Virus record (IMG/VR): IMGVR_UViG_2579779049_000022
Source of the DNA: a virus
Lineage: Duplodnaviria; Heunggongvirae; Uroviricota; Caudoviricetes
Strand: one strand, 5' to 3'
Length of the DNA stretch: 15,002 bases
This document shows positions 995-15,002 of this stretch, piece after piece. The stretch's first letter is position 1. Each line of letters starts with the position of its first letter. The notes beneath the pieces were generated by a model. That model saw nothing but the letters and a program-made list of their open reading frames with translations. It was not told the origin of the DNA and did not search any database. A program made the translations under genes and the position numbers.

Positions 995-1069
995 TGGTGT
1001 CCCCTGCAGGAATCGAACCTGCAATTAGCCCTTAGGAGGGGCTCGTTATATCCATTTAACTAAGAGGAC
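995..1069 (-). tRNA. argW: tRNA-Arg (anticodon CCU)
   Basis: Reverse complement of 995-1069 is GTCCTCTTAGTTAAATGGATATAACGAGCCCCTCCTAAGGGCTAATTGCAGGTTCGATTCCTGCAGGGGACACCA: 75 nt with encoded CCA end, T-arm GGTTCGATTCC and anticodon loop CUCCUAAGG. Matches recalled E. coli argW. Confidence 0.92.
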
Positions 1070-3683: not shown

Positions 3684-3878
3684 TTATACGGTTGGTGAGG
3701 TGTCAGCTTCTTCTACCAGCTTTTCCAGTTCATCCAGCTTTCGGGAAAGAATTTCACCAAACAGATGAAGTTCTGCATCTGCTGTAATCGGGATTGGAAC
3801 AAATCGTATTCCACTTCTGGCAAGTTGATTTGCGATTTCCAGACACTGCCTTAATTCAACTGGTGATGCCTTTGTCAA
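3684..3878 (-). CDS. Hypothetical acidic small protein; start uncertain (TTG 3878, or ATG 3980 with 125 bp overlap of the methyltransferase gene)
   Basis: Protein-like ORF (...VELRQCLEIANQLARSGIRFVPIPITADAELHLFGEILSRKLDELEKLVEEADTSPTV) in a different frame from the MT-A70 3' end. No convincing SD at either candidate start. Confidence 0.35.
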   Translation of the reverse strand: MTKASPVELRQCLEIANQLARSGIRFVPIPITADAELHLFGEILSRKLDELEKLVEEADTSPTV

Positions 3879-4482
3879 CGTCGTTTTTTCGCTTATTGGT
3901 TTTCTCCAGAAATTTAACAATACCCGGAACCATCTCAATGGATGGTGTGCCGCATTGGTTACCCCATACATCAAATCCATGCGAGGTGTGGCGGGCGAAC
4001 AGTTCTATCCGGGGAACATCGCCAAGAAGTTGCACAAGTTTTTCTCGAGCCATATCCGGCTTGCGGGAGTGATCAAGGCGCGGTGCAGTGAATGACTGGA
4101 TTATTCCGGCGTTAATGCGTTCGGGCAGATTTCCTTTCACTGCAAAAAGGCAGTCTTCGCTGTTAGCGCGAGTGGTGCTACCCATACCCATGACCAGCTT
4201 GTCGGTCTGTCTTTTCCCGCATTTGTTCCAGGTTAATCCTTTCATCGTCACCAGACGAAAGCCCCACGCTTCTACAACCTTCAATGCTTCAAGTGGTTGT
4301 GTAGGCACCCACCACATAGACAACAGGCAATTATCGGCTGCCAGTTCCCATACCGGGAGGCGGCAGATATCCAGAAGACTCATGACCGGATATTTAAAAC
4401 TTGCACCGCGTTGACCATCGGTTGCTTTGTCGCGGAATGTCCAGGGGGGATCTGCGTAAATGAGGGTGTATTTTTTCGTCAT
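3856..4482 (-). CDS. MT-A70 family DNA N6-adenine methyltransferase (phage Dam-like)
   Basis: N-terminal LIYADPPW (DPPW catalytic motif) and C-terminal FDVWGNQ, characteristic of the MT-A70 family. ATGA start/stop overlap with the upstream gene at 4479-4482. Confidence 0.85.
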   Translation of the reverse strand: MTKKYTLIYADPPWTFRDKATDGQRGASFKYPVMSLLDICRLPVWELAADNCLLSMWWVPTQPLEALKVVEAWGFRLVTMKGLTWNKCGKRQTDKLVMGMGSTTRANSEDCLFAVKGNLPERINAGIIQSFTAPRLDHSRKPDMAREKLVQLLGDVPRIELFARHTSHGFDVWGNQCGTPSIEMVPGIVKFLEKTNKRKNDVDKGITS

Positions 4483-4965: not shown

Positions 4966-5604
4966 TTACAGGCTTAACGAGAAGCCTTTTCGGGAATTTC
5001 GATCTGACAATCTTGAAATATCCTGTAGCGTGCGGCGCATTTCTTCCGTCAGATGCTTGAAGGCGTTAAATTCAGCGACAGCGGCGTCAACGTTATAGCC
5101 TTTGCTGTGTAGCTCATTGAGGATGCGCATAGTTGGGCTTGGCATGTCGAAGAGCACAGAAACGTCCAGGTTAAGAGTTTTTCGATCAACATAGCTCATC
5201 ATGGAGTAGGGGTGGTGCTCTGAAAACCACGATAGAGGGTAGTTGATGTTCATTGGTGCAGGTAAAAGGCTCTGGCGAAGTTTCTTTTCGCACTCGATGA
5301 AGTATCGGCGGATCTGGCGGCCTTTTTCGTTACGCTCAACCATCGCCAGTTCTTTGGCTGTGTCGAGAGTTAGGTGGTAGTCCTTGCTACGGCGATCACC
5401 TCCTCGCCCTTTGGTTTGCCCATTTTGGCAAATCAAAATATAGTCCTGGCTTTCAACGAATCCATATTCAGCAATGCGTTCTTTAACCCAGTGCGCGAAC
5501 ATTCTGCCCACACCAAGAAAAGAGTGTAGATCACGAGCGTTAACTAGAAGAATTGTTTCGTTGTCGATAGTGCCGTTGAATACGGGGATGAGTTGACTGG
5601 TCAT
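4966..5604 (-). CDS. Phage antirepressor-like protein (AntA/Bro-N-type N-terminal domain)
   Basis: Strong RBS AAGGAGG 5 nt upstream of ATG 5604 (the track ORF starts 10 codons earlier without an RBS). N-terminal NARDLHSFLGVGRMFAHWVKERIAEYGFVESQDY resembles the antirepressor/Bro-N family. Confidence 0.65.
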   Translation of the reverse strand: MTSQLIPVFNGTIDNETILLVNARDLHSFLGVGRMFAHWVKERIAEYGFVESQDYILICQNGQTKGRGGDRRSKDYHLTLDTAKELAMVERNEKGRQIRRYFIECEKKLRQSLLPAPMNINYPLSWFSEHHPYSMMSYVDRKTLNLDVSVLFDMPSPTMRILNELHSKGYNVDAAVAEFNAFKHLTEEMRRTLQDISRLSDRNSRKGFSLSL

Positions 5605-5633
5605 GATGACCTCCTTTGAAGTTTTAGTTAGCA

Positions 5634-5656
5634 ATCACCAGTTAGTGGCTGGTGAT
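5634..5656. promoter_or_regulatory. Palindrome ATCACCAG-N7-CTGGTGAT in the 5' region of the antirepressor-like gene (candidate operator)
   Basis: Perfect 8-bp inverted repeat read directly. It lies between a TTGACA hexamer (minus strand, 5661-5666) and the gene's RBS. Confidence 0.3.
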
Positions 5657-5959
5657 CGGGTGTCAACTAGAGCCTTCAAAGATGCTCCGGGCATATTCCC
5701 CTTGCGGGTATTGTATTACGCCTCTCCACCCGACCTTTGTACGGATGTGACTATGCCAAATTGCAGGCATAAAAAAGCCGCAAAGCTATCGGGTGCGGAT
5801 GACCGCTTTGAAGTTCTAGTGCGGTCAGTATGCGATAGCTCTGGCGGATTTGTCAAATCATGTAGGCCTTATCTTGCTGTAAGCCGCGCCATTCGGGCTT
5901 TTCCCCAGATTTGGGGGAAACTATCTGCGAAGTATTCACCTTTGACGGCAAGTTGCAGG

Positions 5960-7051: not shown

Positions 7052-7459
7052 TCACTCTCCTTTGATGCGAATGCCAGTAGCGCGGATTGCATCGATGACT
7101 TCAGAAACTTTGTATGCCATTACCGTTTGGTAATCATCGTGAAAATCTGTTCGATGAAGCATGCTGCTACGTTCCGGGAGCAGTATTTCCCGCGCTTCCA
7201 GTTCTGCAATGCGCTTTTTTGCTGCTTCCAGTTCATCCAGTAATTCCAGCACGGTAGCCGGATTAGCCTTGGCAACAAAATCCCGGACTGGCTTACAATC
7301 AATCTCCGCAATGGGTTGATACGATGTGTAGCCATGCTGTCTTGTATAACTACCGTGACGAATAACGAAAAAATCACCATTTATTTTTTTAGCCTGCCAC
7401 TTATCTTCACCGGCTTTCTCTGCCGCTTCACGCAGTGCCTGATAGTCAATCTTGCTCAC
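7052..7459 (-). CDS. ead/Ea22-like family prophage protein (paralogue 1; GTG start)
   Basis: Coiled-coil motif ANPATVLELLDELEAAKKRIAELEAREILLP and C-terminal AIRATGIRIKGE. AGGAGG 6 nt upstream of GTG 7457-7459, which overlaps the upstream stop (GTGA). Paralogous to 9308-9769. Confidence 0.6.
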   Translation of the reverse strand: MSKIDYQALREAAEKAGEDKWQAKKINGDFFVIRHGSYTRQHGYTSYQPIAEIDCKPVRDFVAKANPATVLELLDELEAAKKRIAELEAREILLPERSSMLHRTDFHDDYQTVMAYKVSEVIDAIRATGIRIKGE

Positions 7460-10062: not shown

Positions 10063-10481
10063 TCCATCACCTCCTGAAAGTTTCCCCGATAGAACGCCAG
10101 CACACGCTGCATAACTTCGCTCCTCCTGCTCTCACGACAAATTATGTTCTGGTGCCTGTCGTAGCGGCGTATTTCGCCGTCTGGTAACGACCAGATAAGG
10201 TCCGGATCAACCACTGCAGGTTTCTTCAGCTTTGCCCTTGAGAGCTTTTTACGGGTATTTTGCCAGTCCTTACGCGCCTGTTCAGACGGGAATAACCCGT
10301 AACCAGAGTTGTATACATCGCCACTGGCAACCAGCTCTCTGGCCAGAACGCTCATCAGATATCTTGTTGCCCCAGTTTTAGCTTCCAGTTGTCGTAACGT
10401 CTCGCGCCCACTCTGGCGTACGAGTTCAAGAACCTGCCCTTTAATTTTTTCCCGCTCTTCTTGTGTAAAAACTTTTGCCAC
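10059..10481 (-). CDS. Hypothetical protein directly downstream of the replication gene (possible replication accessory/DNA-binding protein)
   Basis: GTG start with AGGAGGG RBS. N-terminal region LELVRQSGRETLRQLEAKTGATRYLMSVLARELVASG is wHTH-like. Function not recognised. Confidence 0.5.
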   Translation of the reverse strand: MAKVFTQEEREKIKGQVLELVRQSGRETLRQLEAKTGATRYLMSVLARELVASGDVYNSGYGLFPSEQARKDWQNTRKKLSRAKLKKPAVVDPDLIWSLPDGEIRRYDRHQNIICRESRRSEVMQRVLAFYRGNFQEVME

Positions 10482-10521
10482 AAGCCCTCCTGAAAATTAC
10501 CTCATGACCAGAAATTAACAC

Positions 10522-11592
10522 TTACCCCCTGAAGCCCGGCGGAATTTCGTTATCCGGTTCAGAAATATGATTCACACAACGCTGGTTGTTCGTGCCGCTT
10601 ACCGGGAGCAACCAGGGGTTCTCAAAATTCCGGTCCGGTCCAAAAAACGTCGTCGCTCGCTGAACAAATTCCGTTCCCGTTTTCCCGGTAGCCGCCAAGT
10701 ATCTTGCGTAACGCCTCACGCCATCCAGCATGGCCTCTGGTGGCACCCCCTCGCGTAATCTGGCCTTCCAGGCACTGAAAGCGGATTTCTTCGGGTTTGC
10801 CCCAGCACGCAACGGGTACTCCCGCCAGACCTGTTCGAACACATCCGGATAATCCACTCGTCCCACAGACTGACCGGTGTTTTCCGGGACTACCCGATCG
10901 GCTTCCCGCTGAATGGCGGAATCGGCTTCAGGCTGCTGCAGTTGGTGTGATTGCTCCGGCCTTGCGGTCATCACCTGCTGCACAGCGCCCGAATCGGCTT
11001 TCAGCGCATACGCTGAATCGGCTTCCGGTGTCGTGCCTGCTGGCTGACCAGGATTGACGGTCTGAACATCCCCTGCCTGGTTCGTGGCGTTTTTTACGCC
11101 ATGGACCATAGTGTTTTGATCTTCTTGATCTGTATCTTTATCTGTATCTTTATCTGTCGTGACTCGTCGTGACATGTGCGTGACATTTCGTGACGCGCCG
11201 TGACAATCGCCATTTTGTTCCCGCTTTCTTTCCCTCTCTCGCTGCGCCCTCTTGCGCTCTGCAGGAGATTTTGCGGTTTGCGAAATATTGCCGTTGTCCT
11301 CTTTAAGCACCTGGCGTTTTTCCCATCCAGTGATTAAATCACCATCAAGTACCCGCCCCTGCATCGTCTGCAAAATTGAATCAATTACCTCTTCTGTCAC
11401 GTCGAGCGCACTTGCCAAATCTTCTGTCGTGACATCAATGTGACCTCGCGTGACATTTCGTGACGCGCTCACCAGGAGGTGGATATACACTGCCATCACT
11501 GTTGCAATTGGCTGCCCTGACACCCTGGCAATTGTTCGCCACTTAGGGTCATTTGGCATGTCATGCCATAATCTGAGCCAGGCGTTAGCCAT
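10522..11592 (-). CDS. Phage replication initiator / replisome-organiser-like protein with internal origin-like iterons
   Basis: Position immediately after the Cro-like and YdaT-like genes. Architecture is N-domain, low-complexity linker (DKDTDKDTD, Q/P/T-rich), C-domain (DYPDVFEQVWREYPLRAGANPKKSAFSAWKARL...TFFGPDRNFENPW). Iteron-like CGTGAC repeats and an AT-rich tandem repeat lie inside the coding sequence, as in the lambda O gene. Confidence 0.65.
   Translation of the reverse strand: MANAWLRLWHDMPNDPKWRTIARVSGQPIATVMAVYIHLLVSASRNVTRGHIDVTTEDLASALDVTEEVIDSILQTMQGRVLDGDLITGWEKRQVLKEDNGNISQTAKSPAERKRAQRERERKREQNGDCHGASRNVTHMSRRVTTDKDTDKDTDQEDQNTMVHGVKNATNQAGDVQTVNPGQPAGTTPEADSAYALKADSGAVQQVMTARPEQSHQLQQPEADSAIQREADRVVPENTGQSVGRVDYPDVFEQVWREYPLRAGANPKKSAFSAWKARLREGVPPEAMLDGVRRYARYLAATGKTGTEFVQRATTFFGPDRNFENPWLLPVSGTNNQRCVNHISEPDNEIPPGFRG
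11128..11157. repeat. 12-bp tandem repeat (TGTATCTTTATC x ~2.5), AT-rich, adjacent to iterons
   Basis: Direct reading. Encodes DKDTDKDTD in the minus-strand replication gene. Confidence 0.85.
11158..11204. repeat. Iteron-like array A: five CGTGAC hexamers at 10-11 bp spacing
   Basis: CGTGAC starts at 11158, 11168, 11179, 11189 and 11199, a helical-turn periodicity. Overlaps the 21-bp direct repeat GCGTGACATTTCGTGACGCGC (11178-11198). Confidence 0.7.
11396..11468. repeat. Iteron-like array B: inverted GTCACG (11396) then CGTGAC/TGTGAC hexamers at 11428, 11439, 11449, 11459
   Basis: Contains a second exact copy of GCGTGACATTTCGTGACGCGC (11448-11468), 270 bp from the first. Confidence 0.65.
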
Positions 11593-11663
11593 ACTCACCT
11601 CTTCTGATACCGAATCTTTTTACTCACGAGTTGCCGGAAGCGATTCGATACGGCTATTGTCAG

Positions 11664-12089
11664 TCAATGTACTGCCACAGCATTTCCTGCCGGGCCACCA
11701 CGGTTCATCTGATTGAAACCGGCGATTGCCACTGCGACAAAATCATCAGCGTCTCTCACCAGTCGCTCCCGCGTCTCCACCAGCTCCCGAAAATAAGCTG
11801 AACTGTGGCTGCGCATTCTGGCCACCAGCAAAGGTGGCATTGCCTTTTCGATCGCTGGTAACAACGCCTGAATTTTTTCAACTGCATCAGGGGTGTCTTT
11901 CTCTACCCAGCGGAAAATTTTCTGGGTATTGCGAGCCAGGGCTTCCGGATGGCTGTCGTCATACAGTTCAGGAAACGTCATACCCAACTCAAAATAAGCC
12001 TGGGTTATTCCAGCTGCTGGAACTTTTTCGCCATCAGGACGCGCCCAGGCATTCATCGCCATGCGGATGTGTTCATGCTTGATTTTCAT
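11664..12089 (-). CDS. ydaT: YdaT-like prophage protein (CII-position regulator)
   Basis: N-terminal MKIKHEHI... matches recalled Rac YdaT. Sits directly downstream of the Cro-like gene with 17 bp overlap; AGGAG RBS 8 nt upstream of the ATG. Confidence 0.6.
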   Translation of the reverse strand: MKIKHEHIRMAMNAWARPDGEKVPAAGITQAYFELGMTFPELYDDSHPEALARNTQKIFRWVEKDTPDAVEKIQALLPAIEKAMPPLLVARMRSHSSAYFRELVETRERLVRDADDFVAVAIAGFNQMNRGGPAGNAVAVH

Positions 12090-12354
12090 GAATCAAGCTC
12101 CTAGTAAGTGGTTGTGTTAACGTTTTGGTATCTTCCAGCTCGGGCCAAATATTCATCCAATCAAAAGGCCTTAGTTGCTGACGTGTAACTTCACCATTAC
12201 TGGCTCGCTCAATAAGGACACATAACGATGCCCCTAACATTTGACCTTTACTCAATGCCTTTCTTAGATAACCGATGCTAGTACCACACTCACATGCAAA
12301 CATACGCTGTTCATCTGACGAAAGAGAATTGAGAAATATTCTTAATTCTTCCAT
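12073..12354 (-). CDS. ydaS: YdaS-like Cro-type HTH regulator (first gene of the rightward-equivalent early operon)
   Basis: Strong RBS AAGGAG 5 nt upstream of the ATG. Motif ...CGTSIGYLRKAL...NGEVTRQQLRP resembles the YdaS/Cro-like HTH family. Divergent from the repressor gene. Confidence 0.65.
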   Translation of the reverse strand: MEELRIFLNSLSSDEQRMFACECGTSIGYLRKALSKGQMLGASLCVLIERASNGEVTRQQLRPFDWMNIWPELEDTKTLTQPLTRSLIHENQA

Positions 12355-12453
12355 AGCTACTCCTTAGTAAACACAGCAAGAATACCCACAGGTAAACAAA
12401 AGTCAATACCCTTGGGTTGTTTACCTTGCGGTAATCGCATCTATTATTTACCT
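12355..12453. promoter_or_regulatory. Immunity-switch intergenic region: divergent promoters with operator-like inverted repeats
   Basis: 15-bp inverted repeat CCCACAGGTAAACAA (12385-12399) / TTGTTTACCTTGCGG (12417-12431), 13/15 matches. Central near-palindrome ACCCTTGGGT (12406-12415). Minus-strand promoter candidate TTGACT(12401-12406)-16 bp-TATTCT(12379-12384). TATTAT hexamer at 12442-12447, 6 bp upstream of the repressor ATG. Confidence 0.6.
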
Positions 12454-12873
12454 ATGGACAAATATGAATTTAGACGACAACAACTCATCAAAATTCGTGA
12501 TGAGAAATGCGATGGTAAAGCGGTTAACGTGGCCAGAAAGATCGGTCGCGAGCCTTCTTATGTATCAAGAATGTTGTACCCAGAGGGGAAAAAAGGAAAA
12601 AAACGGATCGCTGATGATATGGTGGAGATTATAGAAGAGTCCTTTGGGTTACCCCGGGGATGGATGGATGGTATCGTTTCATCATCAACGAACACAGCCT
12701 CCAATTATGAAACAAGGGTTCTAACGCCACGACAACGTATTTTTTTAGATCTCTTAGACGAACTGCCAGAAAGTGAAGCGGATAACTTATTAAAAACTCT
12801 TGAAGAGAAAAAACAGTATTACAATATGATCTACGAAGAAATCCGTAAAAAGAAAGCACAAAACGCATCATAA
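12454..12873 (+). CDS. Prophage repressor, DicA/RacR-like HTH protein (no S24 peptidase domain)
   Basis: HTH segment AVNVARKIGREPSYVSRML. C-terminal ...ELPESEADNLLKTLEEKK resembles recalled DicA ...ALPESEQDTQLAEM. Divergent from the Cro-like gene. ATG at 12454 preferred over upstream TTG; no SD, so possibly leaderless. Confidence 0.65.
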   Translation: MDKYEFRRQQLIKIRDEKCDGKAVNVARKIGREPSYVSRMLYPEGKKGKKRIADDMVEIIEESFGLPRGWMDGIVSSSTNTASNYETRVLTPRQRIFLDLLDELPESEADNLLKTLEEKKQYYNMIYEEIRKKKAQNAS

Positions 12874-12911
12874 CTCACCAAACAACCAGTCACCAGTTAA
12901 GACACATCAAA

Positions 12912-12956
12912 AAATTACCCATGGGTATTTACTTTTTAAATACCCATGGGTATCCT
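12912..12956. promoter_or_regulatory. Twin perfect palindromes TACCCATGGGTA (12916-12927, 12941-12952) forming one extended inverted repeat; candidate OL-type operators and/or terminator hairpin
   Basis: Read directly. The sites are separated by TTTACTTTTTAAA and followed by T-rich TCCTTCCTTTC. A TTTACT...TATCCT promoter-like pair overlaps them. A related half-site lies in the 12355-12453 switch region. Confidence 0.55.
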
Positions 12957-13138
12957 TCCTTTCATACCAACCCACCCCGTCCCACAGAACGCAGGGCAAT
13001 ACTTCGAGTTACCAGGCAGTGGTCAGGGGGTAAGTAGCCAGCCCGAGGCGTAAGAACATGACGGCAGGGTTCAACTTTAATAACTATGCAGCAGGTTTTT
13101 GTTCCGCTACCCCGGCGTTAAGGGGAAATGAGGTCAGC

Positions 13139-13291
13139 ATGGATACTATCGATCTTGGCAACAGCGAATCTCTGGTATGCGGCGTGTTTCCCAACCAGGA
13201 CGGTACGTTTACCGCGATGACGTATACCAAAAGTAAAACGTTTAAAACCGAAGCTGGCGCGCATCGCTGGTTAGCAAGAAACTCCGACTGA
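13139..13291 (+). CDS. YdfA/YdaF-like small prophage protein (50 aa)
   Basis: RBS GAGGT 4 nt upstream of ATG 13139 (the track ORF begins earlier without signals). Product MDTIDLGNSESLVCGVFPNQDGTFTAMTYTKSKTFKTEAGAHRWLARNSD. First gene after the repressor, as ydfA is after dicA in Qin. Confidence 0.55.
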   Translation: MDTIDLGNSESLVCGVFPNQDGTFTAMTYTKSKTFKTEAGAHRWLARNSD

Positions 13292-14151: not shown

Positions 14152-14488
14152 TTTATCCTCCATTGAGGTTCTGGGTTAAAAATGGAGACCAACACGCTGT
14201 CACGTGTGGTCGTGCGCCGGACACGGATAAGAATCCGGTACTGACAGTTTACTGAAAGGATATTTCCCTGAAAAGTCAGGGCATAACGCGAAAGCGTACG
14301 GCGAAGCTCTTTCCCTTAGAAGGCTTGTCGTTAGATTTCTTCGAACGTGCGCTTCCGGTTGTGGCACTCCGCGAAATGGCGCGGCGGTAAGTATGGCGGG
14401 GTTATTCCTTCCCCGTTGAGGACACCGGGTTGTCAGGTTGACCATACGCTTAAGTGACAACCCCGCTGCAACGCCCTCTGTTATCAAT

Positions 14489-14541
14489 TTTCTGGTGACG
14501 TTTGGCGGTATCAGTTTTACTCCGTGGCTGCTCTGCCGCCC
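14489..14541 (+). ncRNA. dicF: DicF small regulatory RNA (ftsZ-targeting sRNA of Qin-type prophages) with intrinsic terminator
   Basis: TTTCTGGTGACGTTTGGCGGTATCAGTTTTACTCCGTGGCTGCTCTGCCGCCC followed by TTTTT matches recalled E. coli DicF (53 nt) with about one substitution. Lies upstream of dicB as in Qin. Confidence 0.8.
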
Positions 14542-14721
14542 TTTTTAAAGTGAATTTTGTGATGCGGTGAATGCGGCTAAGCGCACGCGGAACAGTTAAA
14601 ACAAGCGGTCTTTTACGGGCGTAACGGGAATGCTCTGTATCCGGCGTTAATTGTTAACTGGTTAACGTCACCTGGAGGCACCAGGCACTGCATCACAAAA
14701 TTCATTGTTGAGGACGCGATA

Positions 14722-14910
14722 ATGGAAACGTTATTACCAAACGTTAATACGTCTGAAGGTTGTTTTGAAATTGGTGTCACTATCAGTAACCCTGTATTTA
14801 CTGAAGATGCCATTAACAAGAGAAAACACGAACGGGAGCTATTAAATAAAATATGCATTCTTTCAATGCTGGCCCGTTTACGTCCGATACAAAAAGGATG
14901 CTGGCAATGA
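14722..14910 (+). CDS. dicB: Cell-division inhibitor DicB
   Basis: 62 aa product METLLPNVNTSEGCFEIGVTISNPVFTEDAINKRKHERELLNKICILSMLARLRPIQKGCWQ closely matches recalled DicB. RBS GAGGA 7 nt upstream. Confidence 0.85.
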   Translation: METLLPNVNTSEGCFEIGVTISNPVFTEDAINKRKHERELLNKICILSMLARLRPIQKGCWQ

Positions 14911-15002
14911 ATACAGCATTTGCACTTGTTCTGACAGTTTTTCTTGTTTCCGGAGAGCCAGTTGATATTGCAGTCAGTGTTCACAGGACAATGCAGGAGT
15001 GT
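14907..15002 (+). CDS. ydfD: YdfD-like small membrane/lysis protein, N-terminal part (runs off window)
   Basis: ATG overlaps the dicB stop (ATGA). Encodes MNTAFALVLTVFLVSGEPVDIAVSVHRTMQEC, matching the recalled YdfD N-terminus with a hydrophobic segment. Confidence 0.6.
   Translation, partial: MNTAFALVLTVFLVSGEPVDIAVSVHRTMQEC

Follow-up and report, generated by a model that had tools for sequence, protein, structure and literature searches.

In phage lambda the operators are 17 bp long, OR1 and OR2 lie 24–25 bp apart, OL comprises three sites 2.4 kb from OR, and the cI mRNA is leaderless. Several other prophages and phages have switches that resemble the one described here. In prophage CP-933P of Escherichia coli O157:H7 (PMC8630535, PMC9986795), which has the repressor PaaR2 and a YdaS protein, the repressor mRNA was found to be leaderless by 5′ RACE, and OR and OL/PL were defined by footprints and reporters (PMC8630535). 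In the Qin prophage of E. coli K-12, with DicA, DicC and dicBp (PMC10448788), a repressor of 135 aa is followed directly by the ydfA-dicF-dicB operon under a PL-like promoter. Phage mEp043 (PV340537.1 / NC_019706) has a cI protein of 228 aa with an S24-type C-terminal domain, and its PL drives N; a literature search found no paper that describes its operators. The Rep protein of Salmonella phage SPC32H (PDB 5d50) is a small HTH repressor controlled by an antirepressor, not by autocleavage.

The locus analysed here lies in a 15,002-nt stretch of viral DNA (hereafter, the window) that belongs to a prophage of the lambda type in pathogenic E. coli. The region is very probably the immunity (lysis/lysogeny) switch of a lambdoid prophage, with a 139-aa repressor and five predicted sites for it that share a single operator motif, TACC-N4-GGTA. 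The five copies flank the repressor gene on both sides in a lambda-style arrangement. Thus the switch is of an ordinary kind, and the understanding of such switches is unchanged by the present findings. The original prediction placed two operator clusters, one OR-like and one OL-like, to the two sides of the repressor gene of an immunity switch, and this reading is supported. Its assignments of the repressor and Cro genes were correct, and every sequence element it described is present at the position given, far beyond chance. Feature coordinates are in Table 1.

Table 1. Features of the switch region and early-left operon, in window coordinates; operators and promoters are predicted.
Feature	Position	Strand	Details
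Immunity cassette (cro-like gene, OR, repressor gene, OL/PL)	12102–12969		Segment differing from phage Tritos between two mosaic joints
Cro-like gene, 93 aa	12073–12354	−	Putative YdaS-family HTH; SD AAGGAG at 12365–12360
PR-like promoter, cro-like operon	12379–12406	−	−35 TTGACT (12406–12401), 16-nt spacer, −10 TATTCT (12384–12379)
Operator A (OR1-like)	12383–12394		TACCCACAGGTA; overlaps PR spacer and first 2 nt of −10
Operator B (OR2-like)	12407–12418		TACCCTTGGGTT; abuts PR −35
PRM-like promoter	12420–12447	+	−35 TTTACC (12420–12425), 16-nt spacer, −10 TATTAT (12442–12447); promoter scan
Operator C (OR3-like)	12422–12433		TACCTTGCGGTA; inside PRM, over −35 and spacer
Repressor gene, 139 aa	12454–12873	+	HTH N-terminal domain 1–72, flexible linker ~73–90, DicA-type helical C-terminal domain ~91–139
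A6 tract directly 5′ of operator D	12909–12914		On the minus strand, U-tract after hairpin
Operator D (OL2-like)	12916–12927		TACCCATGGGTA; abuts PL-like −35
Hairpin from D, E and symmetric spacer	12916–12952	+	Perfect 16-bp stem, 5-nt loop; terminator-like also on minus strand
PL-like promoter (dicBp analogue)	12928–12956	+	−35 TTTACT (12928–12933), 17-nt spacer, −10 TATCCT (12951–12956); read from sequence
Operator E (OL1-like)	12941–12952		TACCCATGGGTA; overlaps PL spacer and first 2 nt of −10
ydfA-like DUF1391 gene, first of early-left operon	13058–13291	+	Pfam DUF1391; RefSeq start 13139
DicF	14490–14541		Rfam
dicB	14722–14910		RefSeq annotation of identical O111 locus

The likeness to lambda extends to several features of layout. 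The repressor and cro genes are divergent and ~100 bp apart, with three OR dyads, two over PR and the third within PRM, and the middle operator is centred at about −42 of PRM. A second operator cluster covers the early-left promoter, beyond the repressor gene and in the same orientation. The PRM −10 directly precedes the ATG, with no SD, and the A–B and D–E spacings of 24–25 bp equal that of OR1 and OR2. The differences are that the operators are 12–14 bp (TACC-N4-GGTA) rather than 17 bp, with a B–C spacing of 15 bp; that OL and OR are only ~0.53 kb apart as opposed to 2.4 kb; that the repressor has no S24 autocleavage domain; that rexAB and a separate terminator between the repressor gene and OL are absent; and that Cro is YdaS-like and the CII analogue is YdaT. 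There are also two OL sites instead of three, which counts against the switch model proposed here.

With CP-933P the locus shares a small non-cleavable repressor, a YdaT CII analogue, the gene order around the switch and probably a YdaS-type Cro. However the operator consensus of CP-933P consists of 18-bp repeats of the GTTTAGTAA type, and the paaA2-parE2 toxin-antitoxin genes that follow its repressor gene are absent here. With Qin it shares a short repressor (139 aa here) with a homologous C-terminal domain and no RecA-cleavage motif, and the position and gene content of the dic operon; DNA identity to Qin is 91–92% over 13101–13284 and 14211–15002. The N-terminal DNA-binding domain of DicA, in contrast, does not align with the repressor, and the Qin operators are TGTTAG-type repeats. 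A tblastn search of the Qin locus with the Cro-like protein gave no match at E < 1e-3, so that the protein is not DicC-like at that threshold. In mEp043 the TACC-N4-GGTA sites are laid out exactly as here, with three between cI and cro, including a GGTT middle site, and two sites 25 bp apart upstream of N. Besides its longer cI, mEp043 differs in having an extra ORF and a canonical terminator between cI and OL.

The operator motif is a 12-bp dyad, in its extended form tTTACC-YRYR-GGTAAa. Copies A, B and C lie in the 99 bp between the divergent Cro-like and repressor genes, and copies D and E are 3′ of the repressor gene. With up to one mismatch allowed, the motif occurs 10 times in the window, compared with 3.04 ± 1.65 times in shuffled sequences; five of the 10 matches fall within the two intergenic regions, which make up 283 bp (Poisson P = 6e-8), and none of 100,000 shuffles had five or more intergenic sites. 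When all 4-mer dyads with gaps of 0–10 were enumerated without bias, TACC-N4-GGTA ranked first (4 intergenic copies vs 1 elsewhere in the window), and ACCC-N2-GGGT, which is nested within it, second (3 vs 0). An exact site at 7121–7132 is within coding sequence and was taken as a chance occurrence, since ~0.2 such sites are expected per 15 kb. A candidate fourth site over the start codon (TACCTATGGACA, 12450–12461), with 2 mismatches, is not conserved in relatives and was dropped. The literature searched by operator sequence held no description of this recognition sequence, the matches being unrelated papers on LAMP assays and Candida. The half-site centres are 8–9 bp apart, which is compact for an HTH dimer and counts against the model.

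About 20 loci from other genera with the same repressor DNA-binding domain carry the motif at the same positions, with 25/15/25-bp spacings and the same promoter overlaps. These related loci are from Yersinia, Edwardsiella, Klebsiella, Pantoea, Brenneria, Aeromonas, Ferrovum and phage mEp043. A total of 86 exact sites are found in 25 related loci (127 kb), where 1.9 are expected. Seventy-six of the 86 are at the predicted places: 44 are within −80 to −25 relative to the repressor ATG, and 32 belong to downstream pairs 24–27 bp apart. The upstream sites cluster near −72, −47 and −32, and the downstream pairs are mostly 25–26 bp apart. The positions of the sites are conserved with respect to both the start codon and the promoter hexamers. 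Conservation in relatives has the form of a footprint, whereby the half-sites, TCAA, ATTTACC and TAnnnT are kept and the centres and spacers vary.

At OR, related loci have a counterpart of site A at −71 to −75 from the repressor ATG and one of site C at −32 to −35, the central 4 bp of site C being unconstrained. The centre of site B is at −41.5 from the repressor ATG and predicted PRM start; its PRM-proximal half-site is degenerate, and this degeneracy (GGTT/GGCC) is kept across genera. The TCAA beside site B, i.e., the TTGA of the PR −35, is invariant in 20 loci, as is the PRM −35 context ATTTACC in related loci. The promoter scan gave the PR-like promoter 9 of 12 matches, but promoter-like sites in the region are no commoner than in shuffles (2 vs 2.0), which counts against the model.

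The original prediction also held that the repressor ATG is preceded by TATTAT without an SD and that this suggests a nearly leaderless mRNA. The hexamer does occur 12 to 7 nt before the ATG at 12454, with no purine-rich SD between them, and related loci show a TAnnnT hexamer at −12 to −7 or −13 to −8, likewise without an SD. Since the PRM −10 ends 6 nt before the ATG and no SD is found, the predicted PRM start is at or beside the A of the ATG and the repressor mRNA is probably leaderless or nearly so. The conserved position of the −10 and the characterised analogues, lambda cI and PaaR2 (PMC8630535), give this proposal good, if indirect, support. A TTG start at 12412 was rejected, since all homologues begin at the ATG, with MDKYE, and differ by 1–3 nt in the upstream distance.

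In the switch as we infer it, a repressor dimer would bind all five sites. Sites A and B, 24 bp apart, cover the −10 and spacer and flank the −35 of the leftward PR, which would drive the Cro-like gene, ydaT and the replication genes. Site B, at −41.5 of PRM, has the position from which lambda CI at OR2 activates PRM, and a repressor bound there may act likewise. Site C, between the −35 and −10 of PRM, would shut PRM at high repressor concentration or upon binding of Cro. Sites B and C may or may not be occupied together, because their centres are only 15 bp apart; any cooperativity between repressor dimers is likewise conjectural. The same sites, with the opposite preference, are the expected targets of the Cro-like protein, which is inherited together with the motif.

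The repressor is a chimera in which an HTH domain of the mEp043-cI type is joined to a C-terminal domain of the DicA type. Residues 1–86 are 65% identical to mEp043 cI (tblastn), and the N-terminal domain has homologues among phage proteins that are annotated as cI and carry S24 domains. In the family alignment the recognition helix (residues 33–40, EPSYVSRM) is invariant or nearly so. An AlphaFold model (pLDDT 86) has helices at 23–30 and 34–40, the predicted HTH. Foldseek matches of the model are XRE-type repressors and are weak (best E = 1e-3). The top match is SPC32H Rep of the Rep-Ant complex, 5d50 (E ~1e-3, TM 0.46–0.48, 16–22% identity); a relationship to Rep was not detected at the sequence level, and a PDB sequence search returned only insignificant matches (E ≥ 0.075). 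The C-terminal part matches the NCBIfam DicA model NF007257 at residues 84–136 (E 2.5e-5, below the whole-protein cut-off), and in BLASTP residues 89–134 align with residues 84–129 of K-12 DicA at 33% identity (E 1e-7). The protein belongs to PHROG 5736 "transcriptional regulator" and has no Pfam match; like the weakness of the Foldseek matches, this counts against the model. The S24/LexA-type autocleavage domain (PF00717), present in relatives of 221–242 aa, is absent from the 139-aa protein. The RefSeq label is still "hypothetical protein". By analogy with DicA, an antirepressor probably controls those repressors that have a DicA-type domain. The window, which contains an AntA-type gene (4966–5634), has no match to the Rem antirepressor and differs from Qin in this respect. 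LexA-box-like matches are no commoner than chance, and none adjoins the AntA-like gene.

The Cro-like protein is 73% identical to mEp043 Cro and belongs to PHROG 35. It matches Pfam YdaS_toxin at E 8.9e-6, with a score of 25.9 that is below the curated cut-off of 30; the YdaT-family CII analogue passes its cut-off (39.6 vs 21). In some genomes the RefSeq name of the Cro-like protein is YdaS family HTH protein.

The motif-bearing segment corresponds exactly to a mosaic cassette. In blastn comparisons with phage Tritos, the window is 96% identical over 10084–12101 and 93% identical over 12970–13284. Between these two joints only the part encoding the repressor C-terminal domain aligns (12757–12873, 76%), and matches to a phage collection restart at ~12963–12965. 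The CI protein of Tritos has the same C-terminal domain and a different N-terminal domain, and the Tritos switch does not have the motif. The motif is co-inherited with the N-terminal domain of the repressor and with Cro, and operator specificity appears to track the N-terminal domain.

Site D is 43 bp from the repressor stop codon. The hexamers of the PL-like promoter are weak (8 of 12 matches, below the promoter-scan threshold). In 21 related loci a −35 (TTGACn, TAGACA or TTTAnn) comes right after site D, and the −10 is formed by the last TA of site E and NNNT. PR and PL have a common design: operator, −35, 6–7 nt, and an operator that overlaps the −10 by 2 nt. Of the 8 bases directly 5′ of site D, at least five are A, both in the window, where they include the A6 tract, and in 15 of the 21 related loci that have a D/E pair. 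Sites D and E, 25 bp apart, would bracket a PL-type promoter as B and A bracket PR, and repressor bound there would repress the ydfA-dicF-dicB early-left operon.

The original prediction had two classes of palindrome, namely a 15-bp inverted repeat pair, CCCACAGGTAAACAA (12385–12399) and TTGTTTACCTTGCGG (12418–12432), around a central near-palindrome, ACCCTTGGGT, and palindromes with an ACCC-N2-GGGT core, which would imply two recognition modes or regulators. The near-palindrome is present at 12409–12418. The repeat is also present, with 12 of 15 positions complementary, and a repeat search extends it to imperfect 20-nt arms (12380–12399 and 12417–12436, 80% complementary); the three copies of ACCC-N2-GGGT are all intergenic. 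However each 15-bp arm holds one complete TACC-N4-GGTA dyad, A in one and C in the other, and the inner C/G of the ACCC/GGGT core vary in relatives (TACCTGTAGGTA, TACCTATAGGTA and others), whereas TACC/GGTA is invariant. A single motif accounts for all five sites and their promoter overlaps, so that there is really one class of palindrome, and two classes are extremely improbable. The dyads within the repeat arms went unnoticed in the original prediction. A different question is which protein reads the sites. They might be read only by the Cro-like YdaS-family protein or another factor, with the 139-aa protein acting elsewhere or through other sequences. A divergent Cro homologue is found ~100 bp upstream of the repressor gene in every locus with a three-site OR (18 of 18), and the 139-aa protein, hypothetical in RefSeq, has no Pfam HTH match. 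Yet five Klebsiella loci devoid of a Cro homologue keep the repressor N-terminal domain together with motif sites at −73, downstream and, in three of the five, at −33. The homology of that domain to S24-bearing phage cI, a predicted HTH with an invariant recognition helix and site positions fixed relative to the repressor ATG also argue for the 139-aa protein, and exclusive reading by Cro or another factor is very unlikely.

Downstream of the repressor gene, the two perfect palindromes with centres 25 bp apart were confirmed, as was the long inverted repeat that they were predicted to form, which is followed by TCCTTCCTTT. As RNA the hairpin has an MFE of −25.7 kcal/mol (z = −6.4) with 6 GC pairs in its stem, and in the family comparison it is the most stable (−23.7 vs −5 to −17 kcal/mol). 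Thus 12916–12952 could be primarily an intrinsic, possibly bidirectional terminator and not an operator/promoter, or, in a softer version, a pair of operators with a second role here in terminating or insulating the repressor transcript. Terminator-like calls on both strands and a good minus-strand U-tract, AUUUUUUGAU, point in this direction. No other terminator occurs between the repressor stop and the dicB operon in the window, whereas a distinct GC-rich terminator lies upstream of the D/E pair in 12 of the 21 relatives that have such a pair. Against this, the plus-strand tail, UCCUUCCUUU, is poor (4 T in 8). Among relatives the distance of the pair from the repressor stop ranges from 43 to 1837 bp, and in every case the pair brackets a −35 and overlaps a −10 of the form TAnnnT. 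OR, which needs no terminator, has three copies of the same dyad. Selection on the RNA structure of the hairpin across the family was rejected, since no covariation is seen between the centres of D and E (47 of 88 pairs vs 46.1 permuted, P = 0.45). A role primarily as a terminator is therefore highly unlikely, and D and E are best read as operators. The hairpin may still terminate the repressor transcript in this prophage, as a function that is not conserved in the family. A more elaborate proposal is that, with identical perfect palindromes and a symmetric spacer, the same 37 bp are promoter/operator at the DNA level and, at the RNA level, the terminator/insulator hairpin of a leaderless repressor transcript, with an antisense terminator on the minus strand, in place of the dedicated GC-rich terminator found in most relatives. 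We regard this proposal as tentative and on balance doubtful. If true, the dual element would shield the cell from read-through into the toxic dicF-dicB operon.

The switch provides a concrete, testable operator code (TACC-N4-GGTA; 3 + 2 sites) for a widespread immunity group: 821 of 5,426 complete E. coli genomes contain at least 80% of the segment, and related modules occur in many Enterobacterales and beyond. It predicts cross-immunity with mEp043-type phages, and it identifies a putative control point of the dicF-dicB cell-division-inhibitor operon in EHEC O111-type prophages. The family is also a clear natural case of domain shuffling, in which one DNA-binding module and its operator set are found with an SOS-cleavable S24 domain in some members and with a DicA-type domain in others.

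All sequence elements of the original prediction are present around the repressor gene at the coordinates given there. These are an imperfect inverted repeat between the Cro-like and repressor genes (12 of 15 positions complementary in the arms first described, 16 of 20 over 12380-12399 / 12417-12436), a central near-palindrome ACCCTTGGGT at 12409-12418, a perfect palindrome occurring twice downstream of the repressor gene, and TATTAT at -12 to -7 of the ATG at 12454. Their division into two palindrome classes, however, is replaced by a single motif, TACC-N4-GGTA, which all five sites fit. Each arm of the long inverted repeat holds one whole small dyad (sites A and C), the near-palindrome lies in site B, and the downstream palindromes are sites D and E. 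The proposed core ACCC-N2-GGGT ranks second in dyad enumeration and is nested within TACC-N4-GGTA, which ranks first when every 4-mer dyad with gaps of 0-10 is enumerated without bias. With at most one mismatch the motif occurs 10 times in the window vs 3.04 +/- 1.65 in shuffles. The two intergenic regions, 283 bp together, contain five of the 10 matches (Poisson P = 6e-8), a number reached by 0 of 100,000 shuffles. The sole exact match beyond the switch, TACCGTTTGGTA at 7121-7132, is in coding sequence and can be put down to chance, about 0.2 such matches being expected in 15 kb.

Features of the switch and of the surrounding prophage (window coordinates)
Feature	Coordinates	Strand	Sequence	Remarks
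Site A (OR-like)	12383-12394		TACCCACAGGTA	TACC-N4-GGTA dyad
Site B (OR-like)	12407-12418		TACCCTTGGGTT	central near-palindrome; fits TACC-N4-GGTA
Site C (OR-like)	12422-12433		TACCTTGCGGTA	TACC-N4-GGTA dyad
Site D (OL-like)	12916-12927		TACCCATGGGTA	fits TACC-N4-GGTA
Site E (OL-like)	12941-12952		TACCCATGGGTA	fits TACC-N4-GGTA
PR (predicted)	12406-12401, 12384-12379	-	TTGACT, TATTCT	promoter scan; 16-nt spacer
PRM (predicted)	12420-12425, 12442-12447	+	TTTACC, TATTAT	promoter scan; 16-nt spacer
PL (predicted)	12928-12933, 12951-12956	+	TTTACT, TATCCT	-35 directly after D; first 2 bases of -10 overlapped by E
DicF sRNA	14490-14541	+		Rfam, 75 bits
AntA/AntB-type antirepressor gene	4966-5634	-		Pfam PF08346, E 7e-28; in PR-side operon
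sRNA-Xcc1 match	5646-5735	-		Rfam, 65 bits; directly upstream of AntA/AntB-type gene
tRNA gene	998-1069	-		prophage cargo
MT-A70-family methyltransferase ORF	3856-4482	-		prophage cargo

A promoter scan calls exactly two promoter-like sites in the region, PR for the Cro-like operon and PRM for the repressor gene; their number is not above chance, and weight is therefore placed on conservation. Site A overlaps the spacer and -10 of PR, site B abuts the PR -35, and site C is located between the PRM hexamers. Relative to the ATG, site B extends from -47 to -36 and its centre is therefore at -41.5, where OR2-bound lambda CI is positioned when it activates PRM. The hexamers of PL, the predicted early-left promoter, are weak (8/12) and under the promoter-scan threshold. 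The PR and PL regions resemble each other over about 50 bp, and each of the 21 relatives that have a D/E pair shows a -35 (TTGACn, TAGACA or TTTAnn) after D and a -10 made up of the last TA of E plus NNNT. An A-tract (12909-12914) lies directly 5′ of D, and the equivalent position was checked in loci L004-L027; the 8 bases 5′ of D are A at 5 or more positions in the window, as they are in 15 of 21 related loci that have the pair. The tract may serve PL as an UP-like element or, on the minus strand, be the U-tract of a terminator.

Residues 1-86 of the repressor show 65% identity to phage mEp043 cI. The DNA is too diverged for a megablast match to mEp043, but the motif is found there at equivalent places: three sites between cI and cro, the middle one again ...GGTT, and two sites 25 bp apart upstream of N. 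A genome-wide scan with the family alignment gave 26 loci, spread over many genera. The 25 distinct loci (127 kb), mEp043 included, contain 86 exact sites vs 1.9 expected, and 76 are at the predicted places, i.e., about -72/-73, -47/-48 and -32/-33 from the repressor ATG and a downstream pair 25-26 bp apart. In 20 distinct OR regions, conservation is found in the half-sites, in TCAA by site B (the TTGA of the PR -35), in ATTTACC, which holds the PRM -35 and shares bases with the left half of site C, and in a TAnnnT hexamer that precedes the ATG by 7-12 nt; centres and spacers are variable. Sites A, B, D and E have YRYR centres, and that of C is unconstrained. The PRM-proximal half of site B is always degenerate, GGTT or GGCC and not GGTA, in genera from Escherichia to Ferrovum and Aeromonas. 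This conserved degeneracy suggests selection for a weak, cooperativity-dependent site. In mEp043 (locus L002, 3553-3576) a wider dyad, TTACCTG-N10-CAGGTAA, is present about 20-40 bp upstream of OL site D, and L014, L016 and L020 have similar GGTAAAC blocks there, as a wider dyad or a lone half-site. These may represent a third, differently spaced OL element, which is absent from the window.

D and E pair into a perfect hairpin with a 16-bp stem (-25.7 kcal/mol, z = -6.4), with TCCTTCCTTT after it. That this hairpin terminates the repressor transcript as a local add-on in the window prophage appears rather unlikely. In its favour, the hairpin is the family's most stable, and after the repressor stop the window offers no other terminator ahead of the toxic dicF-dicB operon; 12 of 21 relatives with the D/E pair have a separate GC-rich terminator. 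Against termination as a conserved function, the plus-strand U-tract is weak, the distance from the repressor stop to the pair ranges from 43 to 1837 bp in relatives, and a permutation test shows no covariation of the D and E centres (47/88 vs 46.1, P = 0.45). Termination is therefore a possible local add-on and not the explanation of the D/E pair.

As to which protein reads these putative operators, the N-terminal domain of the repressor (1-72) is common to a large family of 221-242-aa S24/LexA-type cI proteins. The predicted fold (pLDDT 86) has an HTH formed by helices 23-30 and 34-40, a disordered linker (76-87) and a helical hairpin (92-138). Foldseek matches are to XRE-type repressors only, the top one, a weak match, being the phage Rep of a Rep-antirepressor complex. 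The predicted recognition helix, EPSYVSRM, is invariant or nearly so in the family, which would match the invariant half-sites. The C-terminal domain is of DicA type, with 72% identity to its counterpart in phage Tritos CI. The N-terminal domain of Tritos CI is unrelated, and the motif is absent from the Tritos switch, which has different operators; thus specificity tracks the N-terminal domain. The repressor is a domain chimera (window 12454-12873; L003 2420-2839 and the Qin locus L030 2435-2842 compared), and its mEp043-cI-type HTH domain occurs elsewhere joined to S24 peptidase C-terminal domains of at least two kinds. Thus one operator code is coupled to different induction modules.

The Cro-like protein has 73% identity to mEp043 Cro, and a Cro homologue is found in every locus with a three-site OR. 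Five Klebsiella loci (L007, L009, L011-L013) lack both the Cro homologue and site B, and keep the repressor N-terminal domain, the -73 site, the downstream sites and, in 3 of 5, the -33 site. Judged from sequence, this retention argues that the repressor itself would recognise the motif. These loci, which may be a Cro-less derivative of the switch, have a different conserved upstream block (tttgctatatttt).

The repressor start at 12454 is fixed by an MDKYE N-terminus in all homologues; the PRM -10 ends 6 nt upstream of the ATG and an SD is absent, as originally noted. The -10/ATG arrangement has 0-1 nt slack in 18 of 19 related three-site-OR loci, and 3 nt in L023. For PaaR2 of CP-933P, the PRM start is the start codon by 5′ RACE, with leaderless translation, like lambda cI (PMC8630535). 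We infer that the repressor mRNA here would be leaderless as well.

Homology to Tritos runs to 12101 and restarts at 12970. The divergent 868 bp between are exactly cro, OR, the repressor gene and OL/PL, and end a few bases past the predicted PL start. The left joint (12102) is 29 bp inside the 3′ end of the Cro-like gene, at the ydaT/cro overlap, and beyond the right joint (12969) homology restarts about 13 bp after the PL -10. These joints bound an 868-bp exchangeable immunity cassette, and its content is that expected of an immunity region.

The window is a lambdoid prophage of enterohaemorrhagic-type E. coli. Positions 12073-13060 match E. coli O111:H- 11128 and many further strains at 100% identity, and at least 80% of this segment is found in 821 of 5,426 complete E. 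coli genomes. Annotations in the O111 record are, leftward, 'toxin YdaT family protein' and 'transcriptional regulator' and, rightward, 'hypothetical protein' (139 aa), DUF1391 (ydfA-like) and, further on, dicB. The repressor gene (+) and the early-left operon share orientation; the Cro-like gene (-) is first in an operon with YdaT (CII analogue; Pfam, PHROG 163) and replication genes. This gene order, with DicF, therefore gives the geometry of lambda and of the Qin dicA/dicC region. DicF, the tRNA gene and the methyltransferase ORF are usual lambdoid prophage cargo. The AntA/AntB-type antirepressor may act as the inducer for the non-cleavable repressor; a LexA box was not found adjoining its gene, nor a Rem homologue in the window.

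Functionally the switch is lambda-type. By parts, the closest systems are Qin DicA/DicC/dicBp, with a common repressor C-terminal domain and downstream operon (PMC10448788), and CP-933P PaaR2/YdaS/YdaT (PMC8630535). The switch shares its DNA-binding domain, Cro and operators with the mEp043 immunity group. It differs from classical CI in lacking the S24 domain, and from DicA and PaaR2 in specificity. Literature searches found no published description of TACC-N4-GGTA operators. The switch is not surprising, but it can serve annotation and help to predict immunity and dicB control.
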